Source: an uncultured Gammaproteobacteria bacterium
GTDB taxonomy: Bacteria > Patescibacteriota > Patescibacteriia > UBA2591 > UBA6264
Assembly (NCBI GenBank): GCA_964531505.1
Contig: CAZHDT010000001.1
Span: forward strand, 1-44,579
DNA length: 44,579 bases
Direction: 5' to 3'
The notes below the pieces were generated by a model. The model was not told the origin of the DNA and did not search any database. It worked only from the letters and a program-made list of their open reading frames with translations. Shown here one piece after another: positions 3,612-44,579 of the stretch (positions are counted from its first letter, which is position 1; each line of letters starts with the position of its first letter). A program made the translations under genes and the position numbers.

Positions 3612-3633
3612 TTTTAAAAAATAAAATAAAAAA

Positions 3634-4074
3634 ATGAAAAAAATTGCTATTTCAGACGAAAAGTTTTTTTCTGTGGCCAAACAAGCCGGTGTTACTAAAT
3701 TCGGGTTATTTAATGACGCTGGATATAGAGGTCTTTATGGCATGCCCCTATCAGGTGTTGAACGGAAGAAAGGAATAAAAAAGAGAGAATTATTAGATAG
3801 GGCTGGTTCTACTGAATTGGCGGCTAATTTATTTCGCATTACCCAAACCGACGAAAAGTTGAGAAAGGATAAAATAAAAGGGGATTATTCAGCCTCTCAA
3901 ACTCATTTTATGGTTGGAGGAAAGGTAAGACAAACTATTAAAGAAATTGGCGGGACAACTCCAGAACATCTACCTACAGAAAAACACATCAAAGAAGTAA
4001 AAAAAGAAATAAAAAAATTGGAGAATATAAAAAATAAAAAGATTGAAGTTAATAATAAAATTAAGTCTTTGTAG
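3634..4074 (+). CDS. dinD: DinD (DNA-damage-inducible protein D) C-terminal half as a separate ORF
   Basis: AKQAGV...F..F.NDAGYRGLYG, GSTELAANLFRITQTDEKL and HFMVGGKVRQTIKEIGGTTPEHLP closely parallel E. coli DinD (GYQGLYGG, GSTELAANLFRATQTEEKL, HFDVGRKVRQTIQELGGTMPEELP). Confidence 0.7.
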   Translation: MKKIAISDEKFFSVAKQAGVTKFGLFNDAGYRGLYGMPLSGVERKKGIKKRELLDRAGSTELAANLFRITQTDEKLRKDKIKGDYSASQTHFMVGGKVRQTIKEIGGTTPEHLPTEKHIKEVKKEIKKLENIKNKKIEVNNKIKSL

Positions 4075-11907: not shown

Positions 11908-11934
11908 AAAAAATCCTTTAAAAGGATTTTTTTT
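11908..11934 (+). terminator. Terminator-like hairpin
   Basis: aaaaaatcctt-taaa-aggatttttt. Confidence 0.55.
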
Positions 11935-11980
11935 GCAATTAACAATTAACAATGCGTTTCATTTATGTTATTATAGAAAT

Positions 11981-19863: not shown

Positions 19864-20437
19864 AATATTGGCAGAAATATCAGCTCGCCATATTCATTTA
19901 GAAAAAGAGCATTTTGAGATTCTTTTTGGTTCTGGGGTTAAATTAAAAAAAATAAGAGATGTTTCCCAGCCGGGAGAGTTTGCCGCTGAGCAGACCCTGA
20001 TTTTTAAAACTCCAAAATCAGAAATAAAAAGAATAAGAGTAGTTGGACCATTAAGAAAACAGACCCAAGTTGAAATTTCTAAAACTGATGCGAGAAAATT
20101 AGGTCTTAATCCGCCGATTAGAGTTTCTGGCGATTTGGATAAATCTGAGAAATGTCAATTAATTGGCCCAATGGGAAAAGTTGATTTACTTCAAGGAGTG
20201 ATTATTGCTCAACGGCATTTGCATTTAGAAGTTGAATCAGCTTTAAAAAATAATTTAAAAGACCAAGAAATTGTTTCTGTCAGAATTGGTTCTAAAAATA
20301 GATTAATTACTTTTCATCAAGTAGTGGCGCGAGTTTCATCTGAGTTTAAAAATAGTTTCCATTTAGACACGGATGAAAGCAACGCCGCCGGTTTAATTGG
20401 CGGAGAAGAGGGGATTGTTATTAAAAATGATGAATAG
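19856..20437 (+). CDS. pduL: PduL-type phosphate acyltransferase (phosphotransacetylase analogue)
   Basis: Two PduL signature repeats: ISARHIHL and AQRHLHL. ~190 aa. Overlaps the preceding kinase gene by 8 nt. Confidence 0.8.
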   Translation: MFKILAEISARHIHLEKEHFEILFGSGVKLKKIRDVSQPGEFAAEQTLIFKTPKSEIKRIRVVGPLRKQTQVEISKTDARKLGLNPPIRVSGDLDKSEKCQLIGPMGKVDLLQGVIIAQRHLHLEVESALKNNLKDQEIVSVRIGSKNRLITFHQVVARVSSEFKNSFHLDTDESNAAGLIGGEEGIVIKNDE

Positions 20438-22302: not shown

Positions 22303-23448
22303 ATGAAAATTGCGCATTTAGTTTCCACTTTTCCTCCTTATCACGGCGGGATGGGTAATGTTTGTTTTGTTCAAGCTGAAGAATTAGCTAAATTGGGGCA
22401 TCAAGTGATTGTCTTTGTCCCTGGTAATCCCCAAAATAATAGAAAAGAAAAAGGTTTTGAGATTAGATATTTAAAACCGTTATTCAGTTATGGCAATGCC
22501 TCTTTTATTCCGCAAATAATTAAAGATTTGAATAACTTTGATTTAATTCACCTTCATTGGCCGTTTTTGGGCGGGGCGGAAGCAGTTTTAATTCAACGGG
22601 TTTTTAAAAAACAAAAATCAAAATTGGTTATTCAATATCACATGGATTTAATTGCTTCTGGGTTTAGGGGTTTTATTTTTAAATTAGACTCTTTTTTGTT
22701 TCATTCTCTTTTGTTTAAAAAAGCGGATAAAATTTTAGTTTCTTCTTTAGACTACCTCCGACATTCTGATTTAAATAAATATTGGCAAAAAGATAAAAAT
22801 AAATTTTTAATCAGTCCTTTTGGCGTTAATTGGCAAAGATTTTATCCGCAAGTAAAAAAGCAACAATTATTAGATAAATATCATTTTAATCAAGGAAATA
22901 AGATCATTTTATCAGTCGGCGGTTTGGATAAAGCCCATTATTTTAAGGGGGTTAGTATTTTGATAAGGGTGATGGATAAATTAAAAGAAGAATTGTTAAA
23001 TTTAAAACTTTTGTTAGTTGGCGAGGGAGATTTGAAAAAAGATTATCAGAAATTGGTTTCTGATTTAGGAATAGAAAATAAAGTTGTTTTTACAGGAAGA
23101 ATTGAAGATTTTGAACTTCCTGATTATTATAATTTGTCCGATGTTTTTGTTTTTCCCTCATTTACTAAATCAGAAGCGTTTGGCTTGGTTTCTTTGGAGG
23201 CAATGGCTTGCGCTAAACCGATTATTGTTTCCAATCTTCCAGGACCGAGAAGTTTAGTGGAAGAAAATGGTTTTATTGTTGAAGTAAATGATATTGATGA
23301 TTTAAGCGAGAAAATCAAAAATATTTTTAAAGATAAAGAAAGATTAGAAAAATTTGGGCAAAAAAGTTTTAAATTAGTCAAGGAAAAATATTCTTGGCCG
23401 CAAATTGTCAAGGAAATAGAAAAAATTTATGAAAGGATTATTGGTTAA
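22303..23448 (+). CDS. Family 4 (GT-B) glycosyltransferase
   Basis: N-terminal P..GG.G, C-terminal FPS..EAFGLV.LEAMA.G.P motif. Confidence 0.9.
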   Translation: MKIAHLVSTFPPYHGGMGNVCFVQAEELAKLGHQVIVFVPGNPQNNRKEKGFEIRYLKPLFSYGNASFIPQIIKDLNNFDLIHLHWPFLGGAEAVLIQRVFKKQKSKLVIQYHMDLIASGFRGFIFKLDSFLFHSLLFKKADKILVSSLDYLRHSDLNKYWQKDKNKFLISPFGVNWQRFYPQVKKQQLLDKYHFNQGNKIILSVGGLDKAHYFKGVSILIRVMDKLKEELLNLKLLLVGEGDLKKDYQKLVSDLGIENKVVFTGRIEDFELPDYYNLSDVFVFPSFTKSEAFGLVSLEAMACAKPIIVSNLPGPRSLVEENGFIVEVNDIDDLSEKIKNIFKDKERLEKFGQKSFKLVKEKYSWPQIVKEIEKIYERIIG

Positions 23449-25690
23449 AAAAATAAAAGAAAATAAAAACTTTTTTTTCAGCTTAATAAGCGGGTTAGCG
23501 GTTGTCATTTGGTATTTGAATTTTTCATTTTTAAAAAGCTTTTTATTTTTAAACATTTTTTGCTTTATAATTTATTTTATTCTCAATTCTCTTTGGTTGG
23601 GAAAAATTTTAAAGAAAAGGGGATTTGAAAAGGAAACCCAATTTATTTTTGGTGGATTTTCCCTCGTTTATTTAATCGCTTTTGGAATGGCAATTCCGAT
23701 TGTGGTCTATAATGTAAGGCCATTTTATCTTTTTATTTGGCTTCTTCTTTTGACTTTAATAATTTCATTTTGGGCAAAAAAAATAAAACAAGATTTGCCG
23801 GAAAAAAAATTGTTTGAAGAAATAGAGAAAAAACAAGAAGGCGGGGGAGTAAAAAAAATAGTCTATTTTATTTTTTGGGCTTTATTTTTTATTGGTTGGC
23901 TTTTGTTGTTTTATAGCCGAACTGGAGAGTTCATCCGTTCTCCTTGGGAAGTAATCCATCCGCTTTATCTTTACGCTTGGCTTGGCATAATTTTTATTAT
24001 GGGTTGGCTGGCATTTTCAAGAATAAGGTTCAAAAACTTTTTATTTTTGATTATTTTAATTTCTTTTCTTTGCCATGCTTATTTAATAATTCCTTATCAG
24101 GCTGGGTTTGGTGGTGATAAATGGCGGCATCTTGGCGCTGAAAAATGGCTGATGCAAGGAAATGTTTACGCTCCAACCCTGATTGGAGAAAAAGCTGCTT
24201 TAACAAATGTTGGGCCGTTAAAAGTGCCGGAAGTTTTAGTGGCGGGAAATAAAACTTCTTATGCCAATATGTGGGGATTGGTTATTGCTTTATCATGGCT
24301 TACCGGAATCGATGTTTTTTATTTGGATTTATTAATCGGTTTTTTATTATTTTCCATATTTTTGCCCTTTCTCCTTTTAAAATTAGGTTTGTTTTTTTCG
24401 CGAAAAAAGGAGTTTTTAGCTTTGCTTTTATTAATACCGTTTTGTTTTTATCCATTCCAAGCCTACGCCAGCATTACTGTACCCATGACATTTTCTTTTT
24501 TACCGTTTTTATTTAGTTTAATTTTTATCGGGCGATATCTGACAGAAAAGAAATTTTCTTTAAAAATATTTTATTCATTGATTTTTTTAATTCCCTTTTT
24601 GTATTTTAATTATTTAATTTATTTGATTTTATTCTTGGAAATTTTTGTTTTAGCCATTATTTTTAAAAATTTTTACTTAAAAAAGAAATTGTTTTTGCCA
24701 TTAATTGTTTTTTGCACTGTAGTAATGGTTATTTTTATTCCCGCTTTAGAAACCTATAATCAATATTCATGGTTAAAAAATGACCCTCCTCCTAAAAGTA
24801 ATTTTATTGAGATGGTAAATGATTTTCCTGTTAAGTTGTTTTTTTCTCAAGCTGTTTTTCCAAGAATCTATGGTTTAGAACAAGATAATTGGCTTTATGC
24901 GACCACTGATAAAGGTTTATCCCGCTCAGTTATTTTTGAATTATTGCCCTGGGTTTTTATTTTAACACCATTAGTCTGGCTTTTGTTTTTTTATGGCTTG
25001 AAGCAAATTAAGAAATTAAAGCACCCAGAATGGGGAAAACTTTTTGTCATAGTGTTTTTAATTGTTTTTTTAAATCAAGCCATTTCTTTTTATTTTTTAG
25101 ACGGCAATCATTTATTGAGTAAACGTTTGGTGGTTTTTACTTCTTTTTTATTTTTTTTCCCATTAAGCGCGGGAATTTATTTTTTTGTTAAAAATTTGGA
25201 AAATGTTTTTTCTCAAAAAGCCCTTATTTTTTGCACGGCTTCATTTTTAGCTCTTTTATCAGTGACGGTTTATGTTTCCGGTCCAAAATTTCAGGTGGTA
25301 ACCGGAGATGAGTTTAAAGCGGCAAAATATCTTTGGGAAAAAATTGAAAAAAATGTAGGTCAAAACTATTGTGTTTTAGCAAACACTTGGCCATTGTTGT
25401 CTTTAGAAGGGGTTTCCGGTCGACAGATTATTGCTGGAGGATTTCCGTATTATTATGAATATCGCCAGCCGGAAAGAGTCCAGCTTTTTGATAATCTTAA
25501 TAAAAATCCGTCTTTGCGCGATTTGAATAAAGCATTAGAAATCACTAAATCAAAAGAATGTTATTTTATGACTGAAGAGCGTTGGCTTTATTTTGATAAG
25601 AGAAAGGAAAATATTGAACAATTAGATAAAATACTGGGGCCGAGAAAAGAAATTGGCAAAGTGATGATATGGCATTATCAGCCAGATTAA
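23429..25690 (+). CDS. Large polytopic membrane protein (more than 15 TM) with a C-terminal soluble domain; possibly a GT-C-type glycosyltransferase or polymerase
   Basis: Strongly hydrophobic along ~600 aa. Overlaps the GT4 gene by 20 nt. Function is inferred from context only. Confidence 0.6.
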   Translation: MKGLLVKKIKENKNFFFSLISGLAVVIWYLNFSFLKSFLFLNIFCFIIYFILNSLWLGKILKKRGFEKETQFIFGGFSLVYLIAFGMAIPIVVYNVRPFYLFIWLLLLTLIISFWAKKIKQDLPEKKLFEEIEKKQEGGGVKKIVYFIFWALFFIGWLLLFYSRTGEFIRSPWEVIHPLYLYAWLGIIFIMGWLAFSRIRFKNFLFLIILISFLCHAYLIIPYQAGFGGDKWRHLGAEKWLMQGNVYAPTLIGEKAALTNVGPLKVPEVLVAGNKTSYANMWGLVIALSWLTGIDVFYLDLLIGFLLFSIFLPFLLLKLGLFFSRKKEFLALLLLIPFCFYPFQAYASITVPMTFSFLPFLFSLIFIGRYLTEKKFSLKIFYSLIFLIPFLYFNYLIYLILFLEIFVLAIIFKNFYLKKKLFLPLIVFCTVVMVIFIPALETYNQYSWLKNDPPPKSNFIEMVNDFPVKLFFSQAVFPRIYGLEQDNWLYATTDKGLSRSVIFELLPWVFILTPLVWLLFFYGLKQIKKLKHPEWGKLFVIVFLIVFLNQAISFYFLDGNHLLSKRLVVFTSFLFFFPLSAGIYFFVKNLENVFSQKALIFCTASFLALLSVTVYVSGPKFQVVTGDEFKAAKYLWEKIEKNVGQNYCVLANTWPLLSLEGVSGRQIIAGGFPYYYEYRQPERVQLFDNLNKNPSLRDLNKALEITKSKECYFMTEERWLYFDKRKENIEQLDKILGPRKEIGKVMIWHYQPD

Positions 25691-25725
25691 ATTTAATTTT
25701 TGGTTTAATTTTTTAAAAAAAAGAC

Positions 25726-26589
25726 GTGAAAAGAATATTTTTAAAAATTTATCGTTTATTTGTATTGGTTAGTATTTTAGTTTTATTATTTTGGCTTTGC
25801 CAAAAGAATGTGGTGACGGGGGGAAAACTTTTTATTGAACGAGATTTTTGTAATCAATCCCGTTTTATTAGCAATTTTTATCCAGAAGAAAGAGTTGGGG
25901 AAACAGAGAAGGAGAGGGGTGAATGTTTTCAAAAAGTTTTTGTTGAACCGGCTTATTTTAAGATTAAGATACCGAGAACTTTTGAACGGGCAAAAATTAG
26001 AATATTTTTTCAAAATTTTGATCAAGAAAATTTACAATTAGGATTGATAAAGAAAAGGGAATTTCCTTTGGATTGGCGATTTACTTTAAAACCATTAGAA
26101 AATAAAACCTTAGATTATTTGAACTGGTTTAGATTGTCAGAACAGGGGATTACTCTATGGCAAAAAGAAAAAGAGTTTGACCGCATTTATGATTTTGTAA
26201 ACAATCTTCCTAAAGATAAAAAAATTGGCACATTTTTTTATGATTTTAGTCCGGAAATAAAAAATGGTTTTGATAATATAAAAAAATGGAATTTACAAGA
26301 TTCGATTAACAATTTTGATTATTTAATCGCCGACTATCAGTCTCCTCAGCAAGAAAATAACTGGAAAATGTCAGAAATAGATTTTTTAGTAGGAAAAGAA
26401 TATTTAAACGAACATGCTTTAGAATTTATGATTTCCGCTCCGGGCTTAACGGACCATCGTTATGAGATAAAAATTAAGAAAATTGAAGTGGAATTAATTA
26501 GGCCGGAAGCGAATTGGCAAAGCTTCATTTTTGATTTAAAAGACTATTTATTAAGAAAAATACAAAATGTTAAAGAAAAAATCAGTTAA
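25726..26589 (+). CDS. N-terminally anchored extracytoplasmic protein, unknown function
   Basis: GTG start, one N-terminal TM segment, no recognisable family. Same operon. Confidence 0.55.
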   Translation: MKRIFLKIYRLFVLVSILVLLFWLCQKNVVTGGKLFIERDFCNQSRFISNFYPEERVGETEKERGECFQKVFVEPAYFKIKIPRTFERAKIRIFFQNFDQENLQLGLIKKREFPLDWRFTLKPLENKTLDYLNWFRLSEQGITLWQKEKEFDRIYDFVNNLPKDKKIGTFFYDFSPEIKNGFDNIKKWNLQDSINNFDYLIADYQSPQQENNWKMSEIDFLVGKEYLNEHALEFMISAPGLTDHRYEIKIKKIEVELIRPEANWQSFIFDLKDYLLRKIQNVKEKIS

Positions 26590-27842: not shown

Positions 27843-28982
27843 ATGAAAAAGACAGATTTTAGTTTTATTAAAGCGACATCAATTTTAATCGGCACCATTG
27901 TAGGTGCCGGTATTTTTAGTTTGCCTTATGCTTTTTCAAAAAGCGGTTTTATAGTAGGGATAGTTTACCTCTTATTATTATCTTTAGTTTTCTTAATTAT
28001 TAAAAATTGTTATGCTGAAGTCATTTTAAGGACCAATCAGGAGTTAGAAATGGCTGGTTATGTGGAAAAATATTTAGGCCGTAAGGGGAAGATTTTAATT
28101 ACTCTTTCTTTGATTTTAGGAATTTACGGGGCTTTGGTCGCTTATGTCATCGGAGTGGGAGGATTTCTTCATTCTTTACTTAATCCTGTTTTAGGAGGCA
28201 GTCAAATTTTTTGGTCAGTTCTTTTTTGGGGATTAGCAAGTTTGCTGGTTTTAAAAGGCATTGGCATTATTGGCAGTTTAGAAGTAATAATGGCATTGGG
28301 ATTAAGTTTTATGGTTTTTTTTGTTTTAGGGTTGGCGTTTCCATATCTTAATTTTGATAATTTAAAAACCTTTGAATTAAACAATTTATTTTTTCCATAT
28401 GGCGTAGTGCTTTTTGCTTTGGGTGGCGCTTCGGCCATTCCTACGGTAAGAAGAGTTTTGGGAGATAAAGTTCATTTATTAAGAAAATTGATGGCTTTGG
28501 GAGTATTTATTCCTGTTTTAATTTATCTTATTTTTTGTTTTGTTGTGGTTGGGGTGAGCGGATTAAATACAACCGAAACAGCATTGGTCGGGCTGGCTAA
28601 TTTTACAAACGGGAAAATTTTATTAATTGGCGGTTTATTCGGTATTATGGCAATGACGACTTCTTTTCTTTCATTGGGTTATATTTTAAGAGAGCTTTTT
28701 CATCGAGATTATAAAATTCCTTTGCTACCTGCTTGGATTTTAACTGTTTTTATTCCTTTAATTTTTTATCTTTTAGGTTTGAGAAATTTTATTATCGTGG
28801 TTAGTTTTGCAGGAGGGGTTTTATCAGGATTACAAGGAATTATTCTAATTCTTACTTATTATCAAGCCAAAAAAAAGGGAGACCGCAAACCAGAAATAAG
28901 TTTTAATTTGCCGAAGTCCCTTGCTTATATCATTTATTTGATTTTTATTTTTGGCATTATTTATCAATTTATTTATGTTTAA
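27843..28982 (+). CDS. Amino acid permease (aromatic/Trp-Tyr permease-like, ~11 TM)
   Basis: GT.VGAGIF.LPYA N-terminal signature and the hydrophobic profile. Confidence 0.7.
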   Translation: MKKTDFSFIKATSILIGTIVGAGIFSLPYAFSKSGFIVGIVYLLLLSLVFLIIKNCYAEVILRTNQELEMAGYVEKYLGRKGKILITLSLILGIYGALVAYVIGVGGFLHSLLNPVLGGSQIFWSVLFWGLASLLVLKGIGIIGSLEVIMALGLSFMVFFVLGLAFPYLNFDNLKTFELNNLFFPYGVVLFALGGASAIPTVRRVLGDKVHLLRKLMALGVFIPVLIYLIFCFVVVGVSGLNTTETALVGLANFTNGKILLIGGLFGIMAMTTSFLSLGYILRELFHRDYKIPLLPAWILTVFIPLIFYLLGLRNFIIVVSFAGGVLSGLQGIILILTYYQAKKKGDRKPEISFNLPKSLAYIIYLIFIFGIIYQFIYV

Positions 28983-30051
28983 ACAAAAAACAATTTTAGT
29001 TTTTAATGCCGGGAGCACTTCCTTGAAGTATCAAATTTTTCAAGAGAAAACTTTGCGAGTTTTAGCAAAGAAAGATTTTTCTAATTTGAATTATAAAAAG
29101 AATGACCACTTAACAGTTTTTAATAAAATATTGCAAGAAATAGGAGATTTAGATTTAATAAAAATTGTCGGACATCGCATTGTTCATGGGGGGACAAAGT
29201 TTAATCAGTCGACCCTGCTAATTTCTCGAACAGTTAAAGAAATTTCAAAATTCAATCATTTAGCCCCATTGCATAATCCTTATGCTTTGAAAATTTTAGC
29301 TCTGGCGCAAAAATATTTTTTAAAAACTCCTCACTTAGGAGTTTTTGATACTTCCTTTTTCTCTTCTTTGCCCGATAAGGCAAAAATTTATGCCATACCT
29401 TTAAAATATTATCAAAAGGAAGGAATTCAAAGATTCGGTTTTCATGGCATTTCTCATTATTATTTAGCAGAACAAGCGGCAAAGAAATTAAATAAAAAGC
29501 TCACTGAAATAAATTTAATCACTTGTCATTTGGGAGGGGGAGCCAGTATTACCGCCATTAAAAATGGAAAAGCGGTTGATACCAGTATGGGCATGACACC
29601 CTTGGAAGGTTTAGTAATGATGACGCGCGCTGGCGATATTGATCCTGGTTTAATTTTTCATTTAATTAAAGAAAATAAATTATCCCAAGAAAAGGTTTAT
29701 GATTTACTTAATTATGAGTCGGGAATTAAAGGTTTATCAAATCAAACAAATTTTTTAAACCTTTTAACCAAGGTTAAACAAGGGGAAGCTAAATCAAAAT
29801 TGGCATTGGAAATATTTATTTATCGAATCCAAAAATATATTGGCGCTTATTTTGGCATTTTAGGAAAAGTAGACGCGATTGTTTTTTCCGGGGCTATCGG
29901 CGCTGGTGATTATTATACTGTGCGGAAAATTAAAAAAGGATTTAAGATTTTAGACCAAGTAAAAATTTTAAGAATAAAAACGGATGAAGAAAGGGCAATT
30001 GCTAAAGAATGCGAGATTTTTTTAAATAAAAAAATATTTTCTAAAAATTAA
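28975..30051 (+). CDS. ackA: Acetate kinase
   Basis: ILVFNAGSTSLKY, HRIVHGG, FGFHG.SH, HLG.G.S...I..G...DTSMG.TPLEG..M..R.GDIDP. ATG 28975 preferred over the TTG at 28951. Confidence 0.9.
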   Translation: MFKQKTILVFNAGSTSLKYQIFQEKTLRVLAKKDFSNLNYKKNDHLTVFNKILQEIGDLDLIKIVGHRIVHGGTKFNQSTLLISRTVKEISKFNHLAPLHNPYALKILALAQKYFLKTPHLGVFDTSFFSSLPDKAKIYAIPLKYYQKEGIQRFGFHGISHYYLAEQAAKKLNKKLTEINLITCHLGGGASITAIKNGKAVDTSMGMTPLEGLVMMTRAGDIDPGLIFHLIKENKLSQEKVYDLLNYESGIKGLSNQTNFLNLLTKVKQGEAKSKLALEIFIYRIQKYIGAYFGILGKVDAIVFSGAIGAGDYYTVRKIKKGFKILDQVKILRIKTDEERAIAKECEIFLNKKIFSKN

Positions 30052-36000: not shown

Positions 36001-37593
36001 TTATATTTTTTTAACTAGATAGGTTTTTTTCAAGCGGTATCCTAAATGACGATAATATTCTCTTACCCCAATTCCGGAAATAACCGCGATTTTTTGAAAC
36101 CCTTGGTTTTTTGCAATTTGTTCCGCCCTTTCAATTAATTTTTTTCCAAAGCCAAAATGCTGAGTGGCTTTTAGTTTTTTATTTTTGATTTCTACTAATT
36201 GTCCATAAGTATGAAGCTCTCTAATAAGGGCTGCATTTTGCAGAACAGGAAGAATCTCTTTTTCTTCTAAATCCGGCAATCTAAGGCGAAGAAAAGCGGC
36301 CAATTTATTTTTTTCTTTATTTTCAAAAGATAAAAATATTTCTTGGCCATTAGAAGCCGAATATCTATTTTCTTTTAATTTAAAATCTTTTAAATTAATC
36401 TTTTGACCCTTAACTTCCCGACAGCGAATACATTGGCAAAAGATATTTTTTTCTTTCATAATCTTTTGTATTATTTCTCTTAAGTTTGAAATTTTGCTGC
36501 CGGCTTGAATTTGATAGGCTGGAATATCTCTAATTAAACGGTTAATTCTAACATAAGGAGGAATAATTAATTTTATTTTAATTATGAGTTCAATTAGTTG
36601 TTGACTGGAATATGGGCGATATTGTCCTTTTTTCCATGATTGGTAAAGGGGTGAGCCTTTAGCAACCACGCAAGGATATATTTTAAGCATATCTGGTTGG
36701 AAGTCGGAATTCGAAAAAAGGTCTTGAAACATTTCAAAATCTTTTTTTAAAGTAGAACCAGCCAAGCCGGGCATTAAATGATAGCAAATTTTAAACCCGG
36801 CATTTTTTAAAAGACGAGTAGCTCTAATCGTTTCTTTGGTTCCATGCCCTCGCCGATTTTTTTTTAAAATTTTATTATCAAGCGATTGAACGCCAATTTC
36901 CACCCTGGTTGCTCCCAAATCTCTCATTCTTTTAATTTCATTTAAATCAAGATAGTCAGGGCGGGTTTCTAAAGTGAGACCGACAATGCGGTTTTTCGCT
37001 TTTTCATTTTTTTTCTGAGCTTGCGCTAAATTTTTACTAATTGATTTATTAGCGCCGTCAAAACATCTTTTAATAAACCAACTTTGGTATTGTTTAGGAA
37101 GATAAGACCAGGTTCCGCCAATCACAATTAATTCTATTTTATCTGTTGGGTGACCATTCCTTTCTAAGATTTGGATTCTGGATTTAGTTTGAAAATAGGG
37201 ATTGTATTTGAGAATTTTTGCTCTTTCTACCGCCGGTTCCCCGGATAAATAACTTTTTGGGACGCCTTTTTCTAATGGGCAATAAAAGCATTTTCCCGGA
37301 CACGGCCATGGTTTAGTTAAAACCGCCACTACGGCTACGCCAGACAATGAACGAATTGGTCTTTTTTTTAAATCATGTTCCAAAAAATAACTTTCTTTTA
37401 TTTTGTTTTTTCTTTTTAAATCGTAATAAATTTCTAAAATATCATTATTGGCAGGCAGGCTAATCTTAAATTCAGAAGATAGTTTTTGTTTGATTTTTGA
37501 AAAATTTTTAAAAGAAGTTAATTTTGTTTTAACCAATTTTTGAACCAAATCATTAAGTTTTTCGGATTTTTCTTTTTCCATTTTTATCATCAT
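36001..37593 (-). CDS. elp3: Elp3-family radical-SAM/GNAT protein (tRNA U34 carboxymethylation type)
   Basis: CPGKCFYCP (CX3CX2C) in the N-half, GGTWS, RVEIGVQS. C-terminal GNAT block ELHTYG....QHFGFGKKLIERAE. Length 530 aa. Confidence 0.85.
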   Translation of the reverse strand: MMIKMEKEKSEKLNDLVQKLVKTKLTSFKNFSKIKQKLSSEFKISLPANNDILEIYYDLKRKNKIKESYFLEHDLKKRPIRSLSGVAVVAVLTKPWPCPGKCFYCPLEKGVPKSYLSGEPAVERAKILKYNPYFQTKSRIQILERNGHPTDKIELIVIGGTWSYLPKQYQSWFIKRCFDGANKSISKNLAQAQKKNEKAKNRIVGLTLETRPDYLDLNEIKRMRDLGATRVEIGVQSLDNKILKKNRRGHGTKETIRATRLLKNAGFKICYHLMPGLAGSTLKKDFEMFQDLFSNSDFQPDMLKIYPCVVAKGSPLYQSWKKGQYRPYSSQQLIELIIKIKLIIPPYVRINRLIRDIPAYQIQAGSKISNLREIIQKIMKEKNIFCQCIRCREVKGQKINLKDFKLKENRYSASNGQEIFLSFENKEKNKLAAFLRLRLPDLEEKEILPVLQNAALIRELHTYGQLVEIKNKKLKATQHFGFGKKLIERAEQIAKNQGFQKIAVISGIGVREYYRHLGYRLKKTYLVKKI

Positions 37594-37663
37594 ATCATTT
37601 TTAGGGCAAAATATAAAGCTTTTCTTGTTTTTAAATTAAATTTTAGTTAAAATAAGATTTATT

Positions 37664-38374
37664 ATGAATAAAAAAAAGATAATTAAAATTTTAAAAAAGA
37701 ATCAAGAGGATTGGGAAAGGATCGCTGTTTCTTTTTCCCACACGCGTCAGAATCTTTGGCTTGAATTCAAAGATTTGGTTAAATATGTTAAGAAAGGGGA
37801 CCGAGTTTTGGATTTGGGTTGCGGTAATGGCCGCCTTTTTCAGATTTTAAAAGAAAAAGAAGTTAATTATTTAGGGATTGATCAGTCGGAGAAATTAATT
37901 TGTCTAGCTAAAGAGAAATTTCCTCAAACAAATTTTATTAAAACCAACCTTATTGAAACATTTTCAAATTATTGTTCGGAAAAATTGCTTTCTAATGAAG
38001 TAGATATTATTTTTTCCATTGCGCTTTTACATCATTTGCCCAGTAAAGGGCTAAGAAGAGAATTTTTTGAGAAATGTTTTTCCTTGTTAAAAAAAGACGG
38101 TTTTTTAATTTTAACTGTTTGGAATTTTTTTCAACCCCGTCTCATTAAAAAATATAGAATAAGAAAAATTATTTTTGGTTTTAAAAATATTTTAATCCCA
38201 TTTAAAGAAAAAGAAAAAATTACATATCGATATTATTATGCCTTTAGGAAAAGGGAATTGGAAAAGATTTTTAATGGGGCCGGATTTCAAATAAAGGAAA
38301 GTTATTATGTTCGTCAAGGAAAAAAAGTTGGGCTAAAAGAGGGATATAATTTAGTAATAGTGGCAAAAAAATAA
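37664..38374 (+). CDS. Trm9-like class I SAM-dependent methyltransferase
   Basis: IAVSFSHTRQNLW, VLDLGCGNGR, FSIALLHHLPS, YRYYYAFRKRELE, NLVIVAKK. These parallel yeast Trm9 blocks IAPHFSQTRYKPW, IDVGCGNGK, ISIAVVHHWST, YRYYHLYREGELA, WWVVAQK. Confidence 0.7.
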   Translation: MNKKKIIKILKKNQEDWERIAVSFSHTRQNLWLEFKDLVKYVKKGDRVLDLGCGNGRLFQILKEKEVNYLGIDQSEKLICLAKEKFPQTNFIKTNLIETFSNYCSEKLLSNEVDIIFSIALLHHLPSKGLRREFFEKCFSLLKKDGFLILTVWNFFQPRLIKKYRIRKIIFGFKNILIPFKEKEKITYRYYYAFRKRELEKIFNGAGFQIKESYYVRQGKKVGLKEGYNLVIVAKK

Positions 38375-38422
38375 CCAACATATATCAAAGCGGTTATTTT
38401 TTATTTCTATTTCTATTTTGAG

Positions 38423-39406
38423 TTAAATCAAACCCATTTTTTGTTTAACTTCTTTAATAGTTTTTTGAGCAATTTCTCTTGCTTGTTTAGTTCCCTTTTC
38501 GAGGATTTTTTTTATTTTTTCAGGATGTTGTTCTAAATACTCTTTTTTTTCTTGAATCGGTTTTAATTCTTTAATTAAATTTTTTGCCAGAAGATGCTTG
38601 CATTCCAGACATCCTATTTTGGCCTGAGTGCATCCTTTAACCACATAATTTAAATCTTTTTTGTCAGAGACGAGTTGATGGAGGTGATATAGGTTGCATT
38701 TTTCCGGGGTGCCAGGGTCAGTTCTTTTTTGTCTAGCCGGATCAGTAACAGCTGGCGCGAGTTTTTTAAGAATAATTTCAAAAGAGTCTGACATAGCAAT
38801 ATAACTTTCCACGCCGTGCGATTTGCTCATTTTTTTTCTAGGATTGTTTAAACTCATAATTCTAGCTCCGGAAGTTAGAATTGGTTTTGGTTCCGGGAAT
38901 GTTTTACCGAAGGTTTTATTGAATTTTCTAGCTATTTCTCTAGCAAGTTCCAAATGTTGAACTTGATCTTCACCAACCGGAACAATTTCTGATTTATAAA
39001 GTAAAATGTCTGCCGCCATTAAAACCGGATAATTAAAAAGGCCAGCATTAATATTTTCCGCGTTTTCTTTTGATTTTTCTTTAAATTGAGTCATGCGATT
39101 TAAATCGCCAATTGGGGTAATGGTATTTAAAATCCAAGCAAGTTCAGTATGTTCTGGAACGGTTGATTGGACAAAGATAATTGATTTATCAGGATTAATT
39201 CCGGCTGAAATAATATCTATGGTCGCCTCCAAAATTCTTTTTGGCATTTGCTTTGGTTGATAAGAAACCGTAATGGCATGGTAATCAACAATAGAGAAAA
39301 GACTGGGGTATTTTTCTTGAAGTTGAACCCAGTTTTTGATTGCTCCGAAGTAATTTCCAATGTGGAGCAAGCCGGTTGGTTGAACGCCGCTAAAAAGTTT
39401 CATCAT
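38423..39406 (-). CDS. trpS: Tryptophan--tRNA ligase (with a C-terminal 4-Cys motif)
   Basis: GVQPTG..HIGNY (HIGH), KMSKS. C-x21-C-x6-C-x2-C in EKCNLYH...KGCTQAKIGCLEC. Confidence 0.95.
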   Translation of the reverse strand: MMKLFSGVQPTGLLHIGNYFGAIKNWVQLQEKYPSLFSIVDYHAITVSYQPKQMPKRILEATIDIISAGINPDKSIIFVQSTVPEHTELAWILNTITPIGDLNRMTQFKEKSKENAENINAGLFNYPVLMAADILLYKSEIVPVGEDQVQHLELAREIARKFNKTFGKTFPEPKPILTSGARIMSLNNPRKKMSKSHGVESYIAMSDSFEIILKKLAPAVTDPARQKRTDPGTPEKCNLYHLHQLVSDKKDLNYVVKGCTQAKIGCLECKHLLAKNLIKELKPIQEKKEYLEQHPEKIKKILEKGTKQAREIAQKTIKEVKQKMGLI

Positions 39407-39574
39407 AGAAATAGGTGATATTTTTTAAACTATTTATATCATAACAGATTGTTTTTAGAAGACAAGATAGTTTAAGAATATTATGGCATTGGGACGCGGA
39501 GATTTAGTGAGATTTCATTATAAAAAGTTGTTATTTTTTAAATTTATGCTATCCTGAGAATAATTCAAACTATT

Positions 39575-39991
39575 ATGGCAAAAGAAAAAAATAAAAAAAA
39601 TATTTTTTCAATAATAATTATTCTTTTAATTTTGTTTTTTTTACCTTTTCTTTTTAAAAAACAGGAAATAAAAATGGATATGGGTAAATTGGAAAAAAAG
39701 ATTTTAGACTGTCTACCCATGGCTAAATTAATTTCAGAAACCAAAAGCGAATTTTCTTATCAGGTTAGTTATTTAAATCAGGGAAATAGTGATTATTCTC
39801 AAGTTATTTTTAAAGAATTGAAGAAAATTTTTTTAAATTCAGGCTGGAGAATTAAACAAAAAGAATTAAAAGAAGATTATCGGTTAATTAGTTTTCAACC
39901 AAGAAAAAAAGAGAAGAGAGAACTTTTAAACGTGGCAATTAGTTATCAAAATAATCAGGGAACTTTTTTCGGTATTGATTATCATTGGTAA
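39575..39991 (+). CDS. N-terminally anchored hypothetical protein
   Basis: Lys-rich start, one TM helix, no recognisable family. Confidence 0.5.
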   Translation: MAKEKNKKNIFSIIIILLILFFLPFLFKKQEIKMDMGKLEKKILDCLPMAKLISETKSEFSYQVSYLNQGNSDYSQVIFKELKKIFLNSGWRIKQKELKEDYRLISFQPRKKEKRELLNVAISYQNNQGTFFGIDYHW

Positions 39992-40023
39992 ATATTAGTA
40001 AATAATTTTGGTTAATGAAAAGT

Positions 40024-40050
40024 AAAAAAACGCGATTCATGCGTTTTTTT
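40024..40050. terminator. Bidirectional terminator hairpin
   Basis: aaaaaaacgc-gattcat-gcgttttttt, between the convergent 39575-39991 gene and tRNA-Leu. Confidence 0.6.
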
Positions 40051-40064
40051 ATTATTTTGAATTA

Positions 40065-40150
40065 TGGTGCCAGAGGTGGGACTCGAACCCACAAGCCTTT
40101 CGGCATACGGCTCTGAACCGTACGTGTTTACCAAATTTCACCACTCTGGC
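40065..40150 (-). tRNA. tRNA-Leu (anticodon CAG), class II long variable arm, CCA encoded
   Basis: Reverse complement folds as GCCAGAG/CUCUGGC acceptor, GUG/CAC D-stem, UACGG-UUCAGAG-CCGUA anticodon arm, GCC-GAAA-GGC variable arm, GUGGG-UUCGAGU-CCCAC T-arm, A-CCA. Confidence 0.92.
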
Positions 40151-41913
40151 TATTTTGAAATTTTTCTTTTAGTTTGATAATACCAATTTTCAATTTCATT
40201 AAAACGGTCAGCTGGGTGGGTGATTTGATTAATATTAACTCCTTTTATCTTTTCGTCAATTAAATAAGAATAACTGGCATTATAAAGGAAAATGGCCGGT
40301 AGATTGTTAGCAATAATTTCTTGAAATTCGCGGTAATTTATCTTTTTTTCTTCCAAATTGTTTGTTAAAGAGGCCTTTTCTAAAAGTTCATCGCTTCTCC
40401 GGAAGCTGAAACCAGTAAGATTTAAACCCGGTGTTTCACTTTGAGATGAATGCCAAAGTGAAAAAGGATCTGAGTTAAAGTCATCAAGAATGCCATATAA
40501 AAAAGCCTGAAAATTTCTTTTTTTAATAACTTCTTTTATTTTATCAGTAGGAATAACGATTAACTTTACTTTCAGGCCGATATTTTGCCATGATTTTTGG
40601 ATCAATTCGGCAATTTTTTCAAATTCTGATTGATTTACCGTAGTTAATTCTATTTCTAGAATTTGTTTATTCTTTTCATAAAATCCGTTTTCGTTTTTTT
40701 TCCAGCCGGCTTGGGTTAAAATATTTTCAGCTGCTGTTGGGTCATAAGAATAAGTCTTTATTTCCGAGTTAAAGAAAGCGGAAGAGGGGAGAATCGGCCC
40801 GTTAATGATAGTTCCCTGTTTATTAAAAACTTTTTCAAAAATTTCGTCTTTCGGAGTTAAATAAGAAAGAGCTTGACGAATAGACTTTTCTGTCAAATAG
40901 TTTTCTTTTCCCTCTGTTTCTGATTGGCGAAGGTTTAAAAATACGGCGTTATAATAAGGAAAATTTAAGCGATAATTTTTAAATCCTTTAATTTCCGCTT
41001 GCTGTTCATTTATTTGTCCGGGTGGAATAATCAGGCCGTTAATTTCTTGATTTTTTAGCGCAAGAAACGCTTGGTTGAAATCCGGATAAAAATGAAAGTT
41101 AATTTCTTTCAGAAATGGACTACTTTGATAATAAAAATTATTTCTTAACAAAGAATAAATAATTATTTTATCGTCCTTGTCTCTAGCCAATAGGTTAAAC
41201 TGATATGGTCCACTGCCAATTGGTTTTAAGTTAAAATTAGATTGGGAAATTTCTTCCGGTTTAATATTTTCCCAGATTGATTTAGGTAGGATACCTAATG
41301 TTAAAATAGAAAAAATATCAGGATTATTTTTCTCTATTTTTATTTTTAAACATTTTTCCGCAGTTTTTTCAAATTGTAGGTTTTTCAGTTTTTCTAACCG
41401 AGGATTTTTAAAAATATCATTTTGGCCAAGAGTGTAAGTAAAAAGAATGTCATCAATGGTTATTTTTTCTTCATTATGCCAAAAAAGATTTTCTTTTAGG
41501 CAAAATTCGTATTCTAATTGTTCGGGATTATAAATAAATTCTTGAACTAAATCGGGTATTAAATTAAAATCAGAGTCATATTTTAAAAGCCCGGAATAAA
41601 CTAAATTAACCAGGCTTAAATCAACTTCATCTACCGCTAAAAAAGGATTGATATTTTTCGGTTGGCCAATTGTGCCTTCATGATAATTTCCTCCGATATT
41701 GGGAACTATTTCTGAAGACGAAAAATAGAATTGGAAAAATAGAATGAGACAAGAAAAAAGAATACAACCCAAAAAAAGTTTAATCAAGTTTTTTTCCTTT
41801 AATGATAAAACTTCATTTAAATATTTTAATTGATGAAAAGAGGGGATTCTTTTTTTACCCTCCTTCGGTTTATTTTTTCTCGAAAAAGGATTTTTTTTAA
41901 AAGATAAGAACAT
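40150..41913 (-). CDS. ABC-type family 5 (OppA/DppA-like) substrate-binding protein, with no transporter partner nearby
   Basis: N-terminal TM anchor, SBP_bac_5-like length and blocks (GSGPY.F, NP..L..Y.G). No permease genes adjacent. Confidence 0.75.
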   Translation of the reverse strand: MFLSFKKNPFSRKNKPKEGKKRIPSFHQLKYLNEVLSLKEKNLIKLFLGCILFSCLILFFQFYFSSSEIVPNIGGNYHEGTIGQPKNINPFLAVDEVDLSLVNLVYSGLLKYDSDFNLIPDLVQEFIYNPEQLEYEFCLKENLFWHNEEKITIDDILFTYTLGQNDIFKNPRLEKLKNLQFEKTAEKCLKIKIEKNNPDIFSILTLGILPKSIWENIKPEEISQSNFNLKPIGSGPYQFNLLARDKDDKIIIYSLLRNNFYYQSSPFLKEINFHFYPDFNQAFLALKNQEINGLIIPPGQINEQQAEIKGFKNYRLNFPYYNAVFLNLRQSETEGKENYLTEKSIRQALSYLTPKDEIFEKVFNKQGTIINGPILPSSAFFNSEIKTYSYDPTAAENILTQAGWKKNENGFYEKNKQILEIELTTVNQSEFEKIAELIQKSWQNIGLKVKLIVIPTDKIKEVIKKRNFQAFLYGILDDFNSDPFSLWHSSQSETPGLNLTGFSFRRSDELLEKASLTNNLEEKKINYREFQEIIANNLPAIFLYNASYSYLIDEKIKGVNINQITHPADRFNEIENWYYQTKRKISK

Positions 41914-41920
41914 AAAAAGT

Positions 41921-42142
41921 TTATTGTTGGGTAATCAAACGAAAGCCTCCTAAAGCCAAAAATAGAACAATTAAAACAATAGTGGAGATAAAAATCGTCT
42001 TTTCCAAACCCCTTTTAGTATGGTAACCCTCTCCACTCCCGCCGAAAATTCCTGATAATCCACTACCCCTTTGTTGAAGAAGAACAGTAATAATCAAGAG
42101 ACAAGAGATAACAATTTGAACAATGTTTAATATTCTTTGCAT
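41921..42142 (-). CDS. secG: Preprotein translocase subunit SecG
   Basis: 73 aa, two TM segments, LLQQRGSGLSGIFGG signature. Confidence 0.85.
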   Translation of the reverse strand: MQRILNIVQIVISCLLIITVLLQQRGSGLSGIFGGSGEGYHTKRGLEKTIFISTIVLIVLFLALGGFRLITQQ

Positions 42143-42152
42143 AAATTTTATA

Positions 42153-42968
42153 TTAATTTTTATTTTTAGAAGATAAATAAACGTTTTTAAGAAGATAGGC
42201 GACGGTTAAGGGTCCAACCCCTCCGGGAACTGGAGAAAGATAGGGAGTTTTTTTTCTTATTTTTTCATCTGCGTCCCCAACCGCTTTTCCCTTTATTCTA
42301 TTATATCCAATGTCGATGACAACGGCGTTTTTTTTAATCATTTCCGGCTTGATGAATTTTGGTTTTCCTATTGCAATAACAATTAAATCAGCTGTTTTTA
42401 TTTGATTTTTTTCTAATAAGGAAAAACTTTTTTTTAAATAAATGATTTCTGTTTTTATTTGATTTTTTTCTAAAAATTTTTTTAAAGGTTCAGCAAAAAT
42501 TTCGTTTTTACTCAAAATAACCGTTTTTTTATTTTTTAAGTTTATTTTAGTTTCTTTAATCAATTTGAGGGTGGCTTGATAAACCGGGGAAATAAATTTT
42601 GTTGCGGGATTAAATCCATCTACATCTTTTAAAGGAGAGATATTTTTTACTAATTTATTTGAATTTAAATGTTTTGGCAAGGGAAGTTGAAGAATTACGC
42701 CATTGATTGATTTATCTTTGTTTATTTTTTTAATTAATTCAATTATCTTTTTGTTTGAAGTTTTATTAGCGAGTGCGAATTTTTTGAATTTAATTCCCAT
42801 TTTCTTTGCCGCCTTTTCTTTTAAACTTACATAAATTAGAGAGCTGGGTTCTTTGCCGACCAAAATGGCGGCTAAGCCGGGTTTTAGGTTTCTTTTTTTA
42901 ATTTCTTTTCTAATGTCTTCTTTTATTTTTTCCGCAATTTTTTTTCCATTCAGGATAATTTTTTCCAT
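42153..42968 (-). CDS. folD: Bifunctional methylenetetrahydrofolate dehydrogenase/cyclohydrolase
   Basis: LAAILVG..P.S..YV..K, GVILQLPLP, PVPGGVGP.T.A.LL. Confidence 0.9.
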   Translation of the reverse strand: MEKIILNGKKIAEKIKEDIRKEIKKRNLKPGLAAILVGKEPSSLIYVSLKEKAAKKMGIKFKKFALANKTSNKKIIELIKKINKDKSINGVILQLPLPKHLNSNKLVKNISPLKDVDGFNPATKFISPVYQATLKLIKETKINLKNKKTVILSKNEIFAEPLKKFLEKNQIKTEIIYLKKSFSLLEKNQIKTADLIVIAIGKPKFIKPEMIKKNAVVIDIGYNRIKGKAVGDADEKIRKKTPYLSPVPGGVGPLTVAYLLKNVYLSSKNKN

Positions 42969-42971
42969 ATT

Positions 42972-44216
42972 TTAGATTTTAAAGTTTTGGTAAATGGGAT
43001 GCTTTAAAGCTAATCGTTTGGTAGCCGTTTTTATTTTTTTTATTATTTTTTCATTATCAAAATGATAAATTATTTCAGCTATCAACTGGCCGATAATTTC
43101 CATTTCTTTTTCTTTAAATCCGCGAGTGGTTAATGCCGGGGTTCCTAGCCGAATACCAGAGGGATTAAAGGGGGTGCGGGAATCATAAGGAATCATATTC
43201 TTATTAACATAAATGCAGGCTTTTTCCAAGGCTCTTTCTCCTTGTTTGCCAGTTATTCCGGTTTTAGTCAAATCAATCAAAATTAGATGGTTGTCAGTGC
43301 CATGAGAAATTAATTCTAATCCTTGTTTTTTTAAAGATAGCGCCAAAGCTTTGGCATTTTTAACAATTTGTTGAGCATATTTTTGAAAGTTTTTTTGAGA
43401 GGCTTCTTTTAGCGCGACAGCAATTGCCGCGGTGGTGTGGTTGTGAGGTCCGCCTTGCATGCCAGGAAAAACGCCTTTGTCAATGACTTCCGCATATTCT
43501 TTTTTACACATAATCATTGCCCCCCTTGGCCCTCGCAAAGTTTTATGAGTGGTAGTGGTGACAATGTCAATAAAAGGGAATGGCTGGGGGTGCATTTTTC
43601 CAATGATTAACCCGGCAATATGAGCGATGTCTGCCATGCTAATCGCTTTTACTTTTTTAGCGATTTCTGCAAATTTTTTAAATTTGATAATTCTAGGATA
43701 AGCAGTGGCGCCACAAAGAATTATTTTAGGTTTATGCTTCTTTGCTAATTTTTCTACTTCATTATAATCAATTAAATGATTTTTAGGGTCAACGCCATAT
43801 TGAATAAAATTAAAAATTTTACCGGATAAATTTACTTTATGTCCATGAGTTAAATGTCCGCCGTGAGCCAAATTCATACCCATAATTGTATCGCCAGGTT
43901 GTAATAAAGAAAAATATACTTCTAAATTTGCCGGCGAGCCGGAATAAGGCTGGATATTAACATGTTCAGCATGGAATAATTTTTTTGCTCTTTCAATCGC
44001 TAAAGTTTCTATCTCATCAATAAATTCGTTTCCGCCGTAATATCTTTTTCCAGGATATCCTTCAGAATATTTATTGGTTAAGGGAGACCCCATGGCTTTT
44101 AGAACCGCTTCAGAAACAAAATTTTCTGATGGAATTAGTTCCAGGCCTTGTTGTTGTCTGATAATTTCTTTTTTTAAAAATCCGGCAATTTGCGGATCTG
44201 TTTTTATTAAATTCAT
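42972..44216 (-). CDS. glyA: Serine hydroxymethyltransferase
   Basis: LELIPSENF, SEGYPGKRYYGG, VTTTTHKTLRGPRG (PLP Lys). Confidence 0.97.
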   Translation of the reverse strand: MNLIKTDPQIAGFLKKEIIRQQQGLELIPSENFVSEAVLKAMGSPLTNKYSEGYPGKRYYGGNEFIDEIETLAIERAKKLFHAEHVNIQPYSGSPANLEVYFSLLQPGDTIMGMNLAHGGHLTHGHKVNLSGKIFNFIQYGVDPKNHLIDYNEVEKLAKKHKPKIILCGATAYPRIIKFKKFAEIAKKVKAISMADIAHIAGLIIGKMHPQPFPFIDIVTTTTHKTLRGPRGAMIMCKKEYAEVIDKGVFPGMQGGPHNHTTAAIAVALKEASQKNFQKYAQQIVKNAKALALSLKKQGLELISHGTDNHLILIDLTKTGITGKQGERALEKACIYVNKNMIPYDSRTPFNPSGIRLGTPALTTRGFKEKEMEIIGQLIAEIIYHFDNEKIIKKIKTATKRLALKHPIYQNFKI

Positions 44217-44451
44217 ATTATAATTTTATCTGATTCAGAAGATTTGTCAATTTAAATGTTAATATTTGGTCGGGTGCTTGGGTAATTGGGCATTAAGGTA
44301 ATCAGGAAATTTGGTGCTCGAATACTTAAATTTAAATGTTTTGAATTATTTAGGAACTTAAAAAAGTATCAAAAAAAATGGTGTTTTGTAAAAATTTAGT
44401 GGATAAAAAATCCGCTCGGAAACGAAGATTAGGAGCGGGTTAGGGAATGGT

Positions 44452-44482
44452 AAAAGTTTGGTGGCTGAGCCACCAAACTTTT
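44452..44482 (+). terminator. Strong terminator-like hairpin with no CDS upstream on either strand
   Basis: aaaagtttggtgg-ctgag-ccaccaaactttt. 11-bp perfect core stem extended by A/T pairs. Confidence 0.5.
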
Positions 44483-44579
44483 AGCTTCGGGGTATAGGGG
44501 TTTGATCTTTTAAAAAATTGACAATTGACAAAAAAATAATTTTTTGCTATCTTTTAATTAAATTAAGTAAAAAAACTTC

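Follow-up and report, generated by a model that had tools for sequence, protein, structure and literature searches.

We describe here a pair of divergent genes at 36001-38374 of the 44,579-nt contig CAZHDT010000001.1 (assembly GCA_964531505.1; the whole contig is called the window in what follows), coding for Elp3 and for a Trm9-like methyltransferase dependent on S-adenosylmethionine (SAM). From their sequences and linkage we propose that the two proteins probably make an Elp3-dependent, Trm9-methylated derivative of the tRNA wobble uridine (U34), either 5-methoxycarbonylmethyluridine (mcm5U) or a thiolated form of it. We regard the pair as a new member, from bacteria, of a two-enzyme pathway already known, and not as a new kind of system. 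An initial annotation had reported a minus-strand open reading frame (ORF) of 530 amino acids (aa) and a plus-strand one of 236 aa, diverging from each other 70 bp apart, and this geometry is confirmed: the Elp3 gene occupies 36001-37593 (minus), the methyltransferase gene 37664-38374 (plus), and the 70 bp between the two start codons (37594-37663) form an A+T-rich spacer. All of the motifs that it quoted from the two proteins are also present, at the positions given below.

The 530-aa protein is assigned as Elp3, the radical-SAM/GNAT enzyme predicted to synthesize the carboxymethyl group of 5-carboxymethyluridine (cm5U) at U34, on a curated model, on matches to solved structures and on its motifs. 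It reaches 592.1 bits against the NCBIfam model TIGR01211 (ELP3), whose curated cutoff is 350, with residues 16-530 lying on model positions 2-522 of 522. Pfam recognizes the Radical_SAM (6e-18) and Radical_SAM_C (2.7e-22) domains, and the GNAT domain Acetyltransf_1 stays just under its cutoff (19.4 versus 20.7 bits). Furthermore, solved Elp3 proteins from each of the three domains of life align with it from end to end with E values of 1e-100 to 2e-141, among them those of Methanocaldococcus infernus (6ia8; 2e-141, 475 bits) and Dehalococcoides mccartyi (5l7j; 2e-119, 402 bits) and a eukaryotic Elp3 (8ptx; 1e-108). The radical-SAM motif CPGKCFYC (CX3CX2C) at residues 98-105 aligns with the cluster loop of M. 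infernus Elp3, the zinc motif CxCxxC (CQCIRC, residues 386-391) stands opposite CRCIRC of the same protein, and the GNAT acetyl-CoA motif QHFGFGKKL (residues 478-486) stands opposite QHMGYGRML of 6ia8. The N-terminal extension is basic and lysine-rich, with 20 Lys or Arg residues within positions 1-80. Both a prokaryote-type zinc-binding Cys triad and a basic N-terminal extension that binds tRNA are described features of Elp3 (PMC6367351). The Elp3 architecture recognized in the initial annotation is thus borne out by the curated score and by the placement of the CPGKCFYC and QHFGFGKKL motifs, and the ORF is a full-length Elp3 for which cm5U formation and tRNA-dependent acetyl-CoA hydrolysis are predicted.

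For the 236-aa protein, a predicted tRNA (carboxymethyluridine34-5-O)-methyltransferase of class I, the curated libraries speak neither for nor against a Trm9 identity. Pfam, which has no Trm9 family of its own, returned generic methyltransferase domains only, and no NCBIfam model reached its cutoff, the prokaryote set returning no Trm9 model; relatives are publicly annotated as "class I SAM-dependent methyltransferase" or "UbiE". The protein contains the blocks FSHTR (residues 24-28), SIALLHH (118-124), YRYYYAFRKRELE (188-200) and NLVIVAKK (229-236), which the initial annotation had lined up with yeast Trm9, and all of the comparisons described below agree with that alignment. Searched as a single sequence, its best PDB match was Yarrowia lipolytica Trm9 in the Trm9-Trm112 complex (5CM2; chain 5cm2_Z) at 7e-13 over residues 26-225, and the second match (7e-9) covered the Rossmann core only. 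When a profile of 49 relatives was used, the match to 5cm2_Z extended over the full length (positions 26-233; 6e-33, 117 bits) and the next solved methyltransferase scored 87 bits over two domains, about 30 bits behind, with the CmoM structure 8joz at 4.5e-10. We also compared this profile with one made from 20 named fungal Trm9 proteins, gathered by reciprocal search from Yarrowia Trm9, and hhalign aligned the two over 207 columns with a probability of 100% and E = 5e-47. The aligned columns take in the IA..FS.TR..W helix at the N-terminus as well as the RYYH and terminal-Asn elements at the C-terminus, all of them outside the generic methyltransferase core. In addition, the AlphaFold2 model of the protein (predicted local distance difference test, pLDDT, 92.9; predicted TM-score, pTM, 0.90) had 5cm2_Z as its top Foldseek match in the PDB (E = 1.4e-15, target TM-score 0.80). 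PDB entry 6F5Z, taken up as a Haloferax Trm9-Trm112 structure, was dropped from the comparison, as it is the Hvo_0019-Trm112 complex.

The conservation of functional residues agrees with these results. In Saccharomyces cerevisiae Trm9, alanine mutants of R29, D72, H116, W145, W168, R241, Y243 and N271 abolish or strongly reduce activity, and K31, R122, E148, Q149 and D270 of the conserved patch are dispensable (PMC4678810, Table 2). Carried over to the window protein via the Yarrowia numbering, the essential positions are R28, D73, H124, W153, F180, R189, Y191 and N229, seven of the eight being identical and W168 being replaced by Phe; with H123 added, these are the signature residues of the protein. 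Among the 49 relatives, R28, D73, W153 and N229 are invariant (49/49 each), H124 is kept in 48 and R189 in 45, Y191 is found in 35, and the F180 position holds Trp in 35 and Phe in 13, while the positions of K31, R122, E148 and D270 are variable. Because the essential positions are nearly invariant and the dispensable ones are not, conservation tracks function in this family, as would be expected of an enzyme with the same task. The Candidate Phyla Radiation (CPR) clade to which the window protein belongs keeps all the residues implicated in recognizing the cm5U carboxylate and the uracil ring. Taken together, five independent lines (the PDB match, the family profile, the profile-profile alignment, the fold and the essential residues) make the METHYLTRANSFERASE a Trm9 orthologue as far as sequence and predicted structure can tell.

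This methyltransferase belongs to a large family, with approximately 2,242 clusters at 50% identity matching the profile at E <= 1e-30 in an exhaustive HMMER search; the best 150 matches of that search are close relatives of CPR type, with no eukaryotic members among them. One subgroup from Anaerolineae and other Chloroflexota (loci L047-L078) keeps the equivalents of R29, D72, H116, W145, W168 and R241 and has Val, Ala or Cys in place of Y243 and Gly, Ser or Ala in place of N271. Its methyltransferase is still paired with an Elp3, one that has no N-terminal extension. This subgroup may be a functional sub-variant, or its C-terminus may be misaligned.

The pairing with Elp3 is widely conserved, as we found on scanning the surroundings of methyltransferase relatives in one genome per species (80 loci), in which Elp3 was sought by tblastn with the window protein. 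Elp3 lay in the flanks of 64 of the 80 loci. In six of the 16 loci where it was not found the methyltransferase is less than 1 kb from a contig end, which leaves 74 testable loci and a frequency of 64/74 (86%). The arrangement is that of the window, with Elp3 directly upstream on the opposite strand, in 61 loci; two loci have an adjacent co-directional pair (L020, Gracilibacteria, and L055, a crenarchaeon) and one has Elp3 5.5 kb away. The gap between the maximal ORFs was 300 bp or less in 54 of the 60 measured. Among the positive loci are those of numerous lineages of Patescibacteria, of Anaerolineae and further Chloroflexota, and of Fermentibacteria, WWE3 and Dojkabacteria, and there are single records labelled Thermoanaerobaculia and Myxococcales. 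When all ORFs of the loci were clustered all against all, no neighbour but Elp3 was conserved, and the genuine families that came next, such as a small beta-barrel protein and MurF, reached at most 16 loci each; the other neighbours in the window recur little (MurF in 12 loci, TrpRS, the tryptophanyl-tRNA synthetase, in four). Synteny as such is not conserved; the adjacency of Elp3 and the Trm9-like gene is, and their pairing is far beyond chance. The pairing that the initial annotation proposed to look for in related genomes is therefore found, and in several phyla. Two recurrent clusters of short ORFs that appeared as a possible third conserved gene fall inside the coordinates of Elp3, on its other strand, and we took them as antisense shadows.

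The loci with no adjacent Elp3 still show the full Trm9 signature, and these methyltransferases are presumably orthologues whose Elp3 is encoded elsewhere in the genome. One of them belongs to the closest relative in the genome collection (44% identity), where MurF is followed by two small ORFs for membrane or secreted proteins, with the Trm9-like gene after them (L001:120-3471), and there is no Elp3 at the site matching that of the window; Elp3 has either moved or been lost in this lineage. The small beta-barrel protein mentioned above (84-190 aa, similar to Peptidase_U32_C and to EF-Tu domain 2) is found in 16 CPR loci (L011:3222-3491 on the plus strand, L004, L009, L012, L013, L016, L017, L019, L022, L026, L029, L031, L032, L037, L039 and L043) and not in the window. 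In most of these loci its gene shares the strand of the Trm9-like gene and lies 0.1-2.5 kb downstream of it; in L009, L013 and L026 it is upstream, and in some loci the protein has a lysine-rich N-terminal tail. U32-family proteins include tRNA and rRNA hydroxylases, and the small protein could be an RNA-binding accessory.

The 70-bp spacer is presumed to hold the promoters of both genes, and the conservation of the divergent geometry suggests that it acts as a shared control region. We counted 15 promoter-like hexamers in the spacer region, a number not clearly above the shuffled expectation for such A+T-rich DNA (9.8 ± 2.9); such hexamers occur on the minus strand at 37668-37640 and 37617-37589.

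Elp3 makes cm5U34 from acetyl-CoA by radical-SAM chemistry, as shown in vitro for the M. infernus enzyme, and acetyl-CoA hydrolysis triggered by tRNA has been shown for bacterial, archaeal and eukaryotic Elp3 (PMC6367351, PMC13315578). Trm9 methyl-esterifies cm5U to mcm5U (PMC4678810). By homology with these enzymes, the two genes of the window would provide a self-contained two-step route to mcm5U34, which could be further thiolated. Elp3 would use acetyl-CoA and a 5'-deoxyadenosyl radical generated by its radical-SAM domain to put a carboxymethyl group on C5 of U34, and the Trm9 orthologue would then move a methyl group from SAM to the carboxylate of cm5U, giving the methyl ester. If the active site is that of yeast Trm9, the carboxylate would be held in place by R28 and H124 and the uracil edge read by N229, with W153 and F180 stacking on bases and D73 binding SAM. 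Conservation of the head-to-head layout, with its short spacer, suggests that the two genes are expressed in a co-ordinated manner. Finally, the methyltransferase would work without the Trm112 activator, which is the least certain step of this scheme.

In the eukaryotic and archaeal paradigm Trm112 covers a hydrophobic patch of Trm9, and the archaeal enzyme of Haloferax volcanii (HvoTrm9) works with Trm112 (PMC5372719, PMC6144793). The patch of Yarrowia Trm9 comprises V59, F78, V102, A110, P112 and F116. At two central hydrophobic contacts of the patch, the bacterial family has Arg or Lys for V59 in 41 of 49 members and Glu, Asn or Asp for F78 in 41 of 49, with F116 and D117 kept. Furthermore, a phmmer search whose only query was E. 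coli YcaR found no YcaR/Trm112-like ORF in the window or in the limited region covered by 80 related loci (1.2 Mb). As residues at the Trm112 contact have become polar or charged and no such ORF lies in these loci, both data suggest that the bacterial Trm9-like protein may be a stand-alone enzyme.

Several of our data weigh against the formation of mcm5U by this pair. The product is deduced from homology and linkage only; the curated libraries do not name the methyltransferase, Pfam giving generic domains and NCBIfam scores that are all below cutoff; and by fold alone Trm9 is only marginally ahead, with dozens of class I methyltransferases within one to two orders of magnitude in Foldseek. The Phe at the W168 position is another such point, as W168A is inactive in yeast, and so are the 10 testable loci without an adjacent Elp3, the closest genome relative among them. 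Moreover, eukaryotic and archaeal Trm9 need Trm112, and our search for this partner covered the window and the related loci only. The generic or sub-threshold library matches, the class I and UbiE labels of the relatives and the similar Foldseek E-values of many class I methyltransferases would also fit a generic enzyme unrelated to Trm9 (like UbiE, SmtA or BioC) that has a small molecule or a protein as substrate and whose place beside Elp3 has no functional meaning. We consider this very improbable, because it would leave unexplained the divergent adjacency in 61 loci of several phyla with nothing else conserved nearby, the full-length match that places Trm9 about 30 bits above the next solved methyltransferase, and the conservation of Trm9-specific functional residues but not of dispensable ones. 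UbiE-type NCBIfam models gave 27-30 bits against cutoffs of 158-216. The clustering with UbiE, SmtA or generic class I enzymes that the initial annotation had named as the opposite outcome is not what we observe, Trm9 being the best solved relative over the whole length.

The pair might also be a version of a wobble route already known in bacteria, either MnmL (YtqA) with MnmM leading to 5-methylaminomethyl-(2-thio)uridine, mnm5(s2)U, or a CmoM-like enzyme forming the methyl ester of uridine 5-oxyacetic acid (mcmo5U). MnmL is an Elp3-like radical-SAM protein often encoded beside a methyltransferase, and its model TIGR01212 does match part of the window protein (2e-25), but only over residues 200-381 and with 89.4 bits against a cutoff of 180, and the window protein carries a GNAT domain at its C-terminus and exceeds the cutoff of the Elp3 model along its whole length. 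CmoM is chemically analogous, as it also esterifies a carboxyl group at U34, and matches weakly (NF008264 at 2.6e-5, 8joz at 4.5e-10), but the NF008264 score is 23.8 bits against a cutoff of 366, and in the profile search CmoM trails Trm9 by 23 orders of magnitude. On these curated scores we rejected both identities, which are hardly credible. A different case is that of a pair that does modify U34 and whose end product is not mcm5U, the methyl ester being an intermediate on the way to something like 5-carbamoylmethyluridine (ncm5U), 5-(methoxycarbonylhydroxymethyl)uridine (mchm5U) or a bacterial variant still to be named, or the methyl group going to another position of the Elp3-derived side chain. 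How cm5U, mcm5U and ncm5U are related in yeast is only partly resolved, and ncm5U builds up in trm9 mutants (PMC3110198); archaea with Elp3 contain U34 derivatives similar but not identical to mcm5s2U, the 2-thio form (PMC2584109); and the replacement of the Y243 and N271 equivalents in the Chloroflexota subgroup hints at functional drift in the family. Against this, every residue for recognition of the cm5U carboxylate and uracil ring is retained in the CPR clade of the window, and the pair is not accompanied by a third conserved gene (an amidase or hydroxylase, for instance), so that a product other than mcm5U or its thiolated form seems unlikely to us.

Regarding the host, the window (G+C approximately 31%) encodes MraZ, RsmH, a penicillin-binding protein (PBP) transpeptidase, MurF, SecG and LexA, and the organism is therefore bacterial; as the named relatives of the window proteins are Patescibacteria, it is a CPR bacterium. 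The housekeeping genes for MraZ, RsmH, the PBP transpeptidase and MurF are upstream of the Elp3/Trm9-like pair, and TrpRS, tRNA-Leu(CAG), a solute-binding protein, SecG, FolD and serine hydroxymethyltransferase (SHMT) are encoded downstream. This gene order is found on 21 assembled contigs, which stem from at least four independent samples, so that the juxtaposition of the two genes is neither a chimera nor an assembly artefact. The window encodes neither MnmE nor MnmG, and a tblastn search for MnmE, MnmG and MnmA over 1.24 Mb of loci gave no more than GTPase-domain matches for MnmE and none for MnmG or MnmA, a result that is uninformative given the small part of each genome covered and the 1-2 or so chance co-locations to be expected (rough estimate).

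Other features of the window are recorded here in their own right. The tRNA-Leu(CAG) gene (40065-40150, minus) is directly downstream, on the same strand, of the 587-aa solute-binding-protein ORF (40150-41913, minus), with a 1-base overlap at the stop-codon end of the ORF (40150). A PduL-type phosphate acyltransferase (PTAC; 19856-20437) and an acetate kinase (28951-30051) are encoded about 9 kb from each other; together they are the ATP-yielding acetyl-CoA/acetate pair that fermentative CPR bacteria typically have, and Elp3 likewise uses acetyl-CoA, as its co-substrate. At 11933-14998 lies a 1021-aa AddA-like UvrD/Rep helicase fused to a C-terminal PD-(D/E)XK nuclease domain. The region 572-2647 holds a LexA-like repressor (S24 peptidase and LexA DNA-binding domain) followed directly by an N6/N4 DNA methylase, with ORFs lacking a Pfam match behind the methylase (2123-2647 and 3084-4074), and could be an orphan methylase or the remnant of a restriction-modification system or of a prophage. 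For two large consecutive ORFs (753 and 287 aa) at 23429-26589, downstream of glycosyltransferase genes, Pfam gave no match at E <= 1e-6. Across 1-36000, where nearly all genes are on the plus strand, the GC skew has strongly positive values (0.12-0.25), and it drops to 0.02-0.15 in 36001-44579, where genes turn to the minus strand; this marked compositional asymmetry of the strands tracks gene orientation. Beyond the 3' end of the window, past SHMT on a longer JGI (Joint Genome Institute) contig of the same organism (L085:19047-20711), there are three small ORFs without annotation and a coupling protein of VirD4/TraG type (T4SS-DNA_transf, DUF87), which suggests a conjugative or type-IV-secretion element near this end.

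To our knowledge, mcm5U-type wobble bases have been regarded as eukaryotic and, in part, archaeal. Elp3 itself is known in "some bacterial clades" or "numerous bacteria" (PMC6367351, PMC13315578) and an NCBI model bears its name. In the case of Trm9, a review on Trm112 states that no bacterial genes with significant similarity to the eukaryotic partner methyltransferases of Trm112 are detectable, and assigns bacterial U34 modification to MnmE, MnmG and MnmC (PMC5372719). Our literature searches pairing Elp3 or MnmG with Patescibacteria returned nothing relevant, and neither the bacterial Trm9 family nor the near-obligate link between it and Elp3 appears to have been described within the literature compared, which did not include the structure paper of D. 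mccartyi Elp3 (PMC5018218). The initial annotation had not known the linkage as a bacterial operon; this stands, as we found no bacterial description, but the clustering as such had already been recorded in 2008 in the archaeon Sulfolobus solfataricus (PMC2584109), and later papers repeated this (PMC6144793, PMC5372719). The wide phyletic spread of the pair was previously unnoticed, and independence from Trm112 is possibly one novel twist.

Our data indicate that a large bacterial Trm9 family, tightly coupled to Elp3, has been hidden by generic annotation. If the pair works as proposed, the Elongator-type wobble pathway would extend to a major bacterial radiation, thousands of entries labelled "class I SAM-dependent methyltransferase" or "UbiE" could be re-annotated, and a naturally minimal two-protein system, possibly Trm112-free, would be at hand for reconstituting mcm5U and for structures of tRNA recognition by Trm9. 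The pair also bears on the decoding of split codon boxes in reduced genomes and on the evolutionary origin of the eukaryotic pathway. A far broader proposal, which we regard as rather doubtful, would be that a large part of the CPR together with lineages of Chloroflexota and other phyla decode with eukaryote-type mcm5(s2)U34 by means of a minimal, mobile and Trm112-free two-gene Elp3-Trm9 module that replaces, and does not supplement, MnmE/MnmG. Since archaeal Trm9 is reported to be scarce and the bacterial family is large and close to eukaryotic Trm9, the eukaryotic enzyme could, on the same proposal, trace to such bacterial proteins and not to archaea.

When compared to known systems, the pair contains the same two catalytic proteins as the eukaryotic pathway to mcm5U/mcm5s2U34, in which Elongator, with the radical-SAM and lysine acetyltransferase (KAT) domains of Elp3, is followed by Trm9-Trm112 in yeast or ALKBH8-TRMT112 in humans. 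Eukaryotic Trm9 and the window protein share the N-terminal helix motif, the SAM motif, the HH motif, the RYY strand and the terminal Asn. Unlike in eukaryotes, no Elp1, Elp2 or Elp4-6 would be expected here, as Elp3 is stand-alone in archaea and bacteria (PMC6367351); moreover, the two window genes stand side by side in divergent orientation, no Trm112 gene was detected in their vicinity, and hydrophobic residues of the Trm112 contact are replaced by charged or polar ones. Archaeal Elp3 is like the window protein in being stand-alone and in having the basic N-terminal extension and the zinc-binding Cys triad, M. infernus Elp3 being the closest (475 bits), although the CX3CX2C cluster motif of the window protein is one residue shorter. 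The Elp3 and Trm9 genes are clustered in S. solfataricus (PMC2584109), as they are adjacent in the crenarchaeal locus of our set. Archaeal Trm9 orthologues have been reported only in Sulfolobales and Halobacteriales (PMC5372719, PMC6144793), whereas the host here is bacterial, the family is large and the genes are divergent instead of co-directional.

Among bacteria, the characterized Elp3 of D. mccartyi (DmcElp3) is also stand-alone and has the same domain architecture as the window protein (402 bits), and Chloroflexota relatives in our loci likewise pair Elp3 with a methyltransferase; we found no discussion of a partner methyltransferase of DmcElp3 in the literature compared. The basic N-terminal extension of about 75 residues, present in archaeal and eukaryotic Elp3, is missing in DmcElp3 (PMC6367351) but is found in the window protein and its CPR relatives: in tblastn, the matches of CPR loci begin at query residues 13-30 and those of Chloroflexota loci at 48-75. 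Finally, the bacterial routes through MnmE/MnmG(/MnmC) and MnmL/MnmM to 5-(carboxy)methylaminomethyluridine, (c)mnm5U34, act on the same target, C5 of the wobble uridine, in the same class of tRNAs, but with other proteins and other chemistry, and the radical-SAM protein of the window fails the MnmL model and passes that of Elp3.

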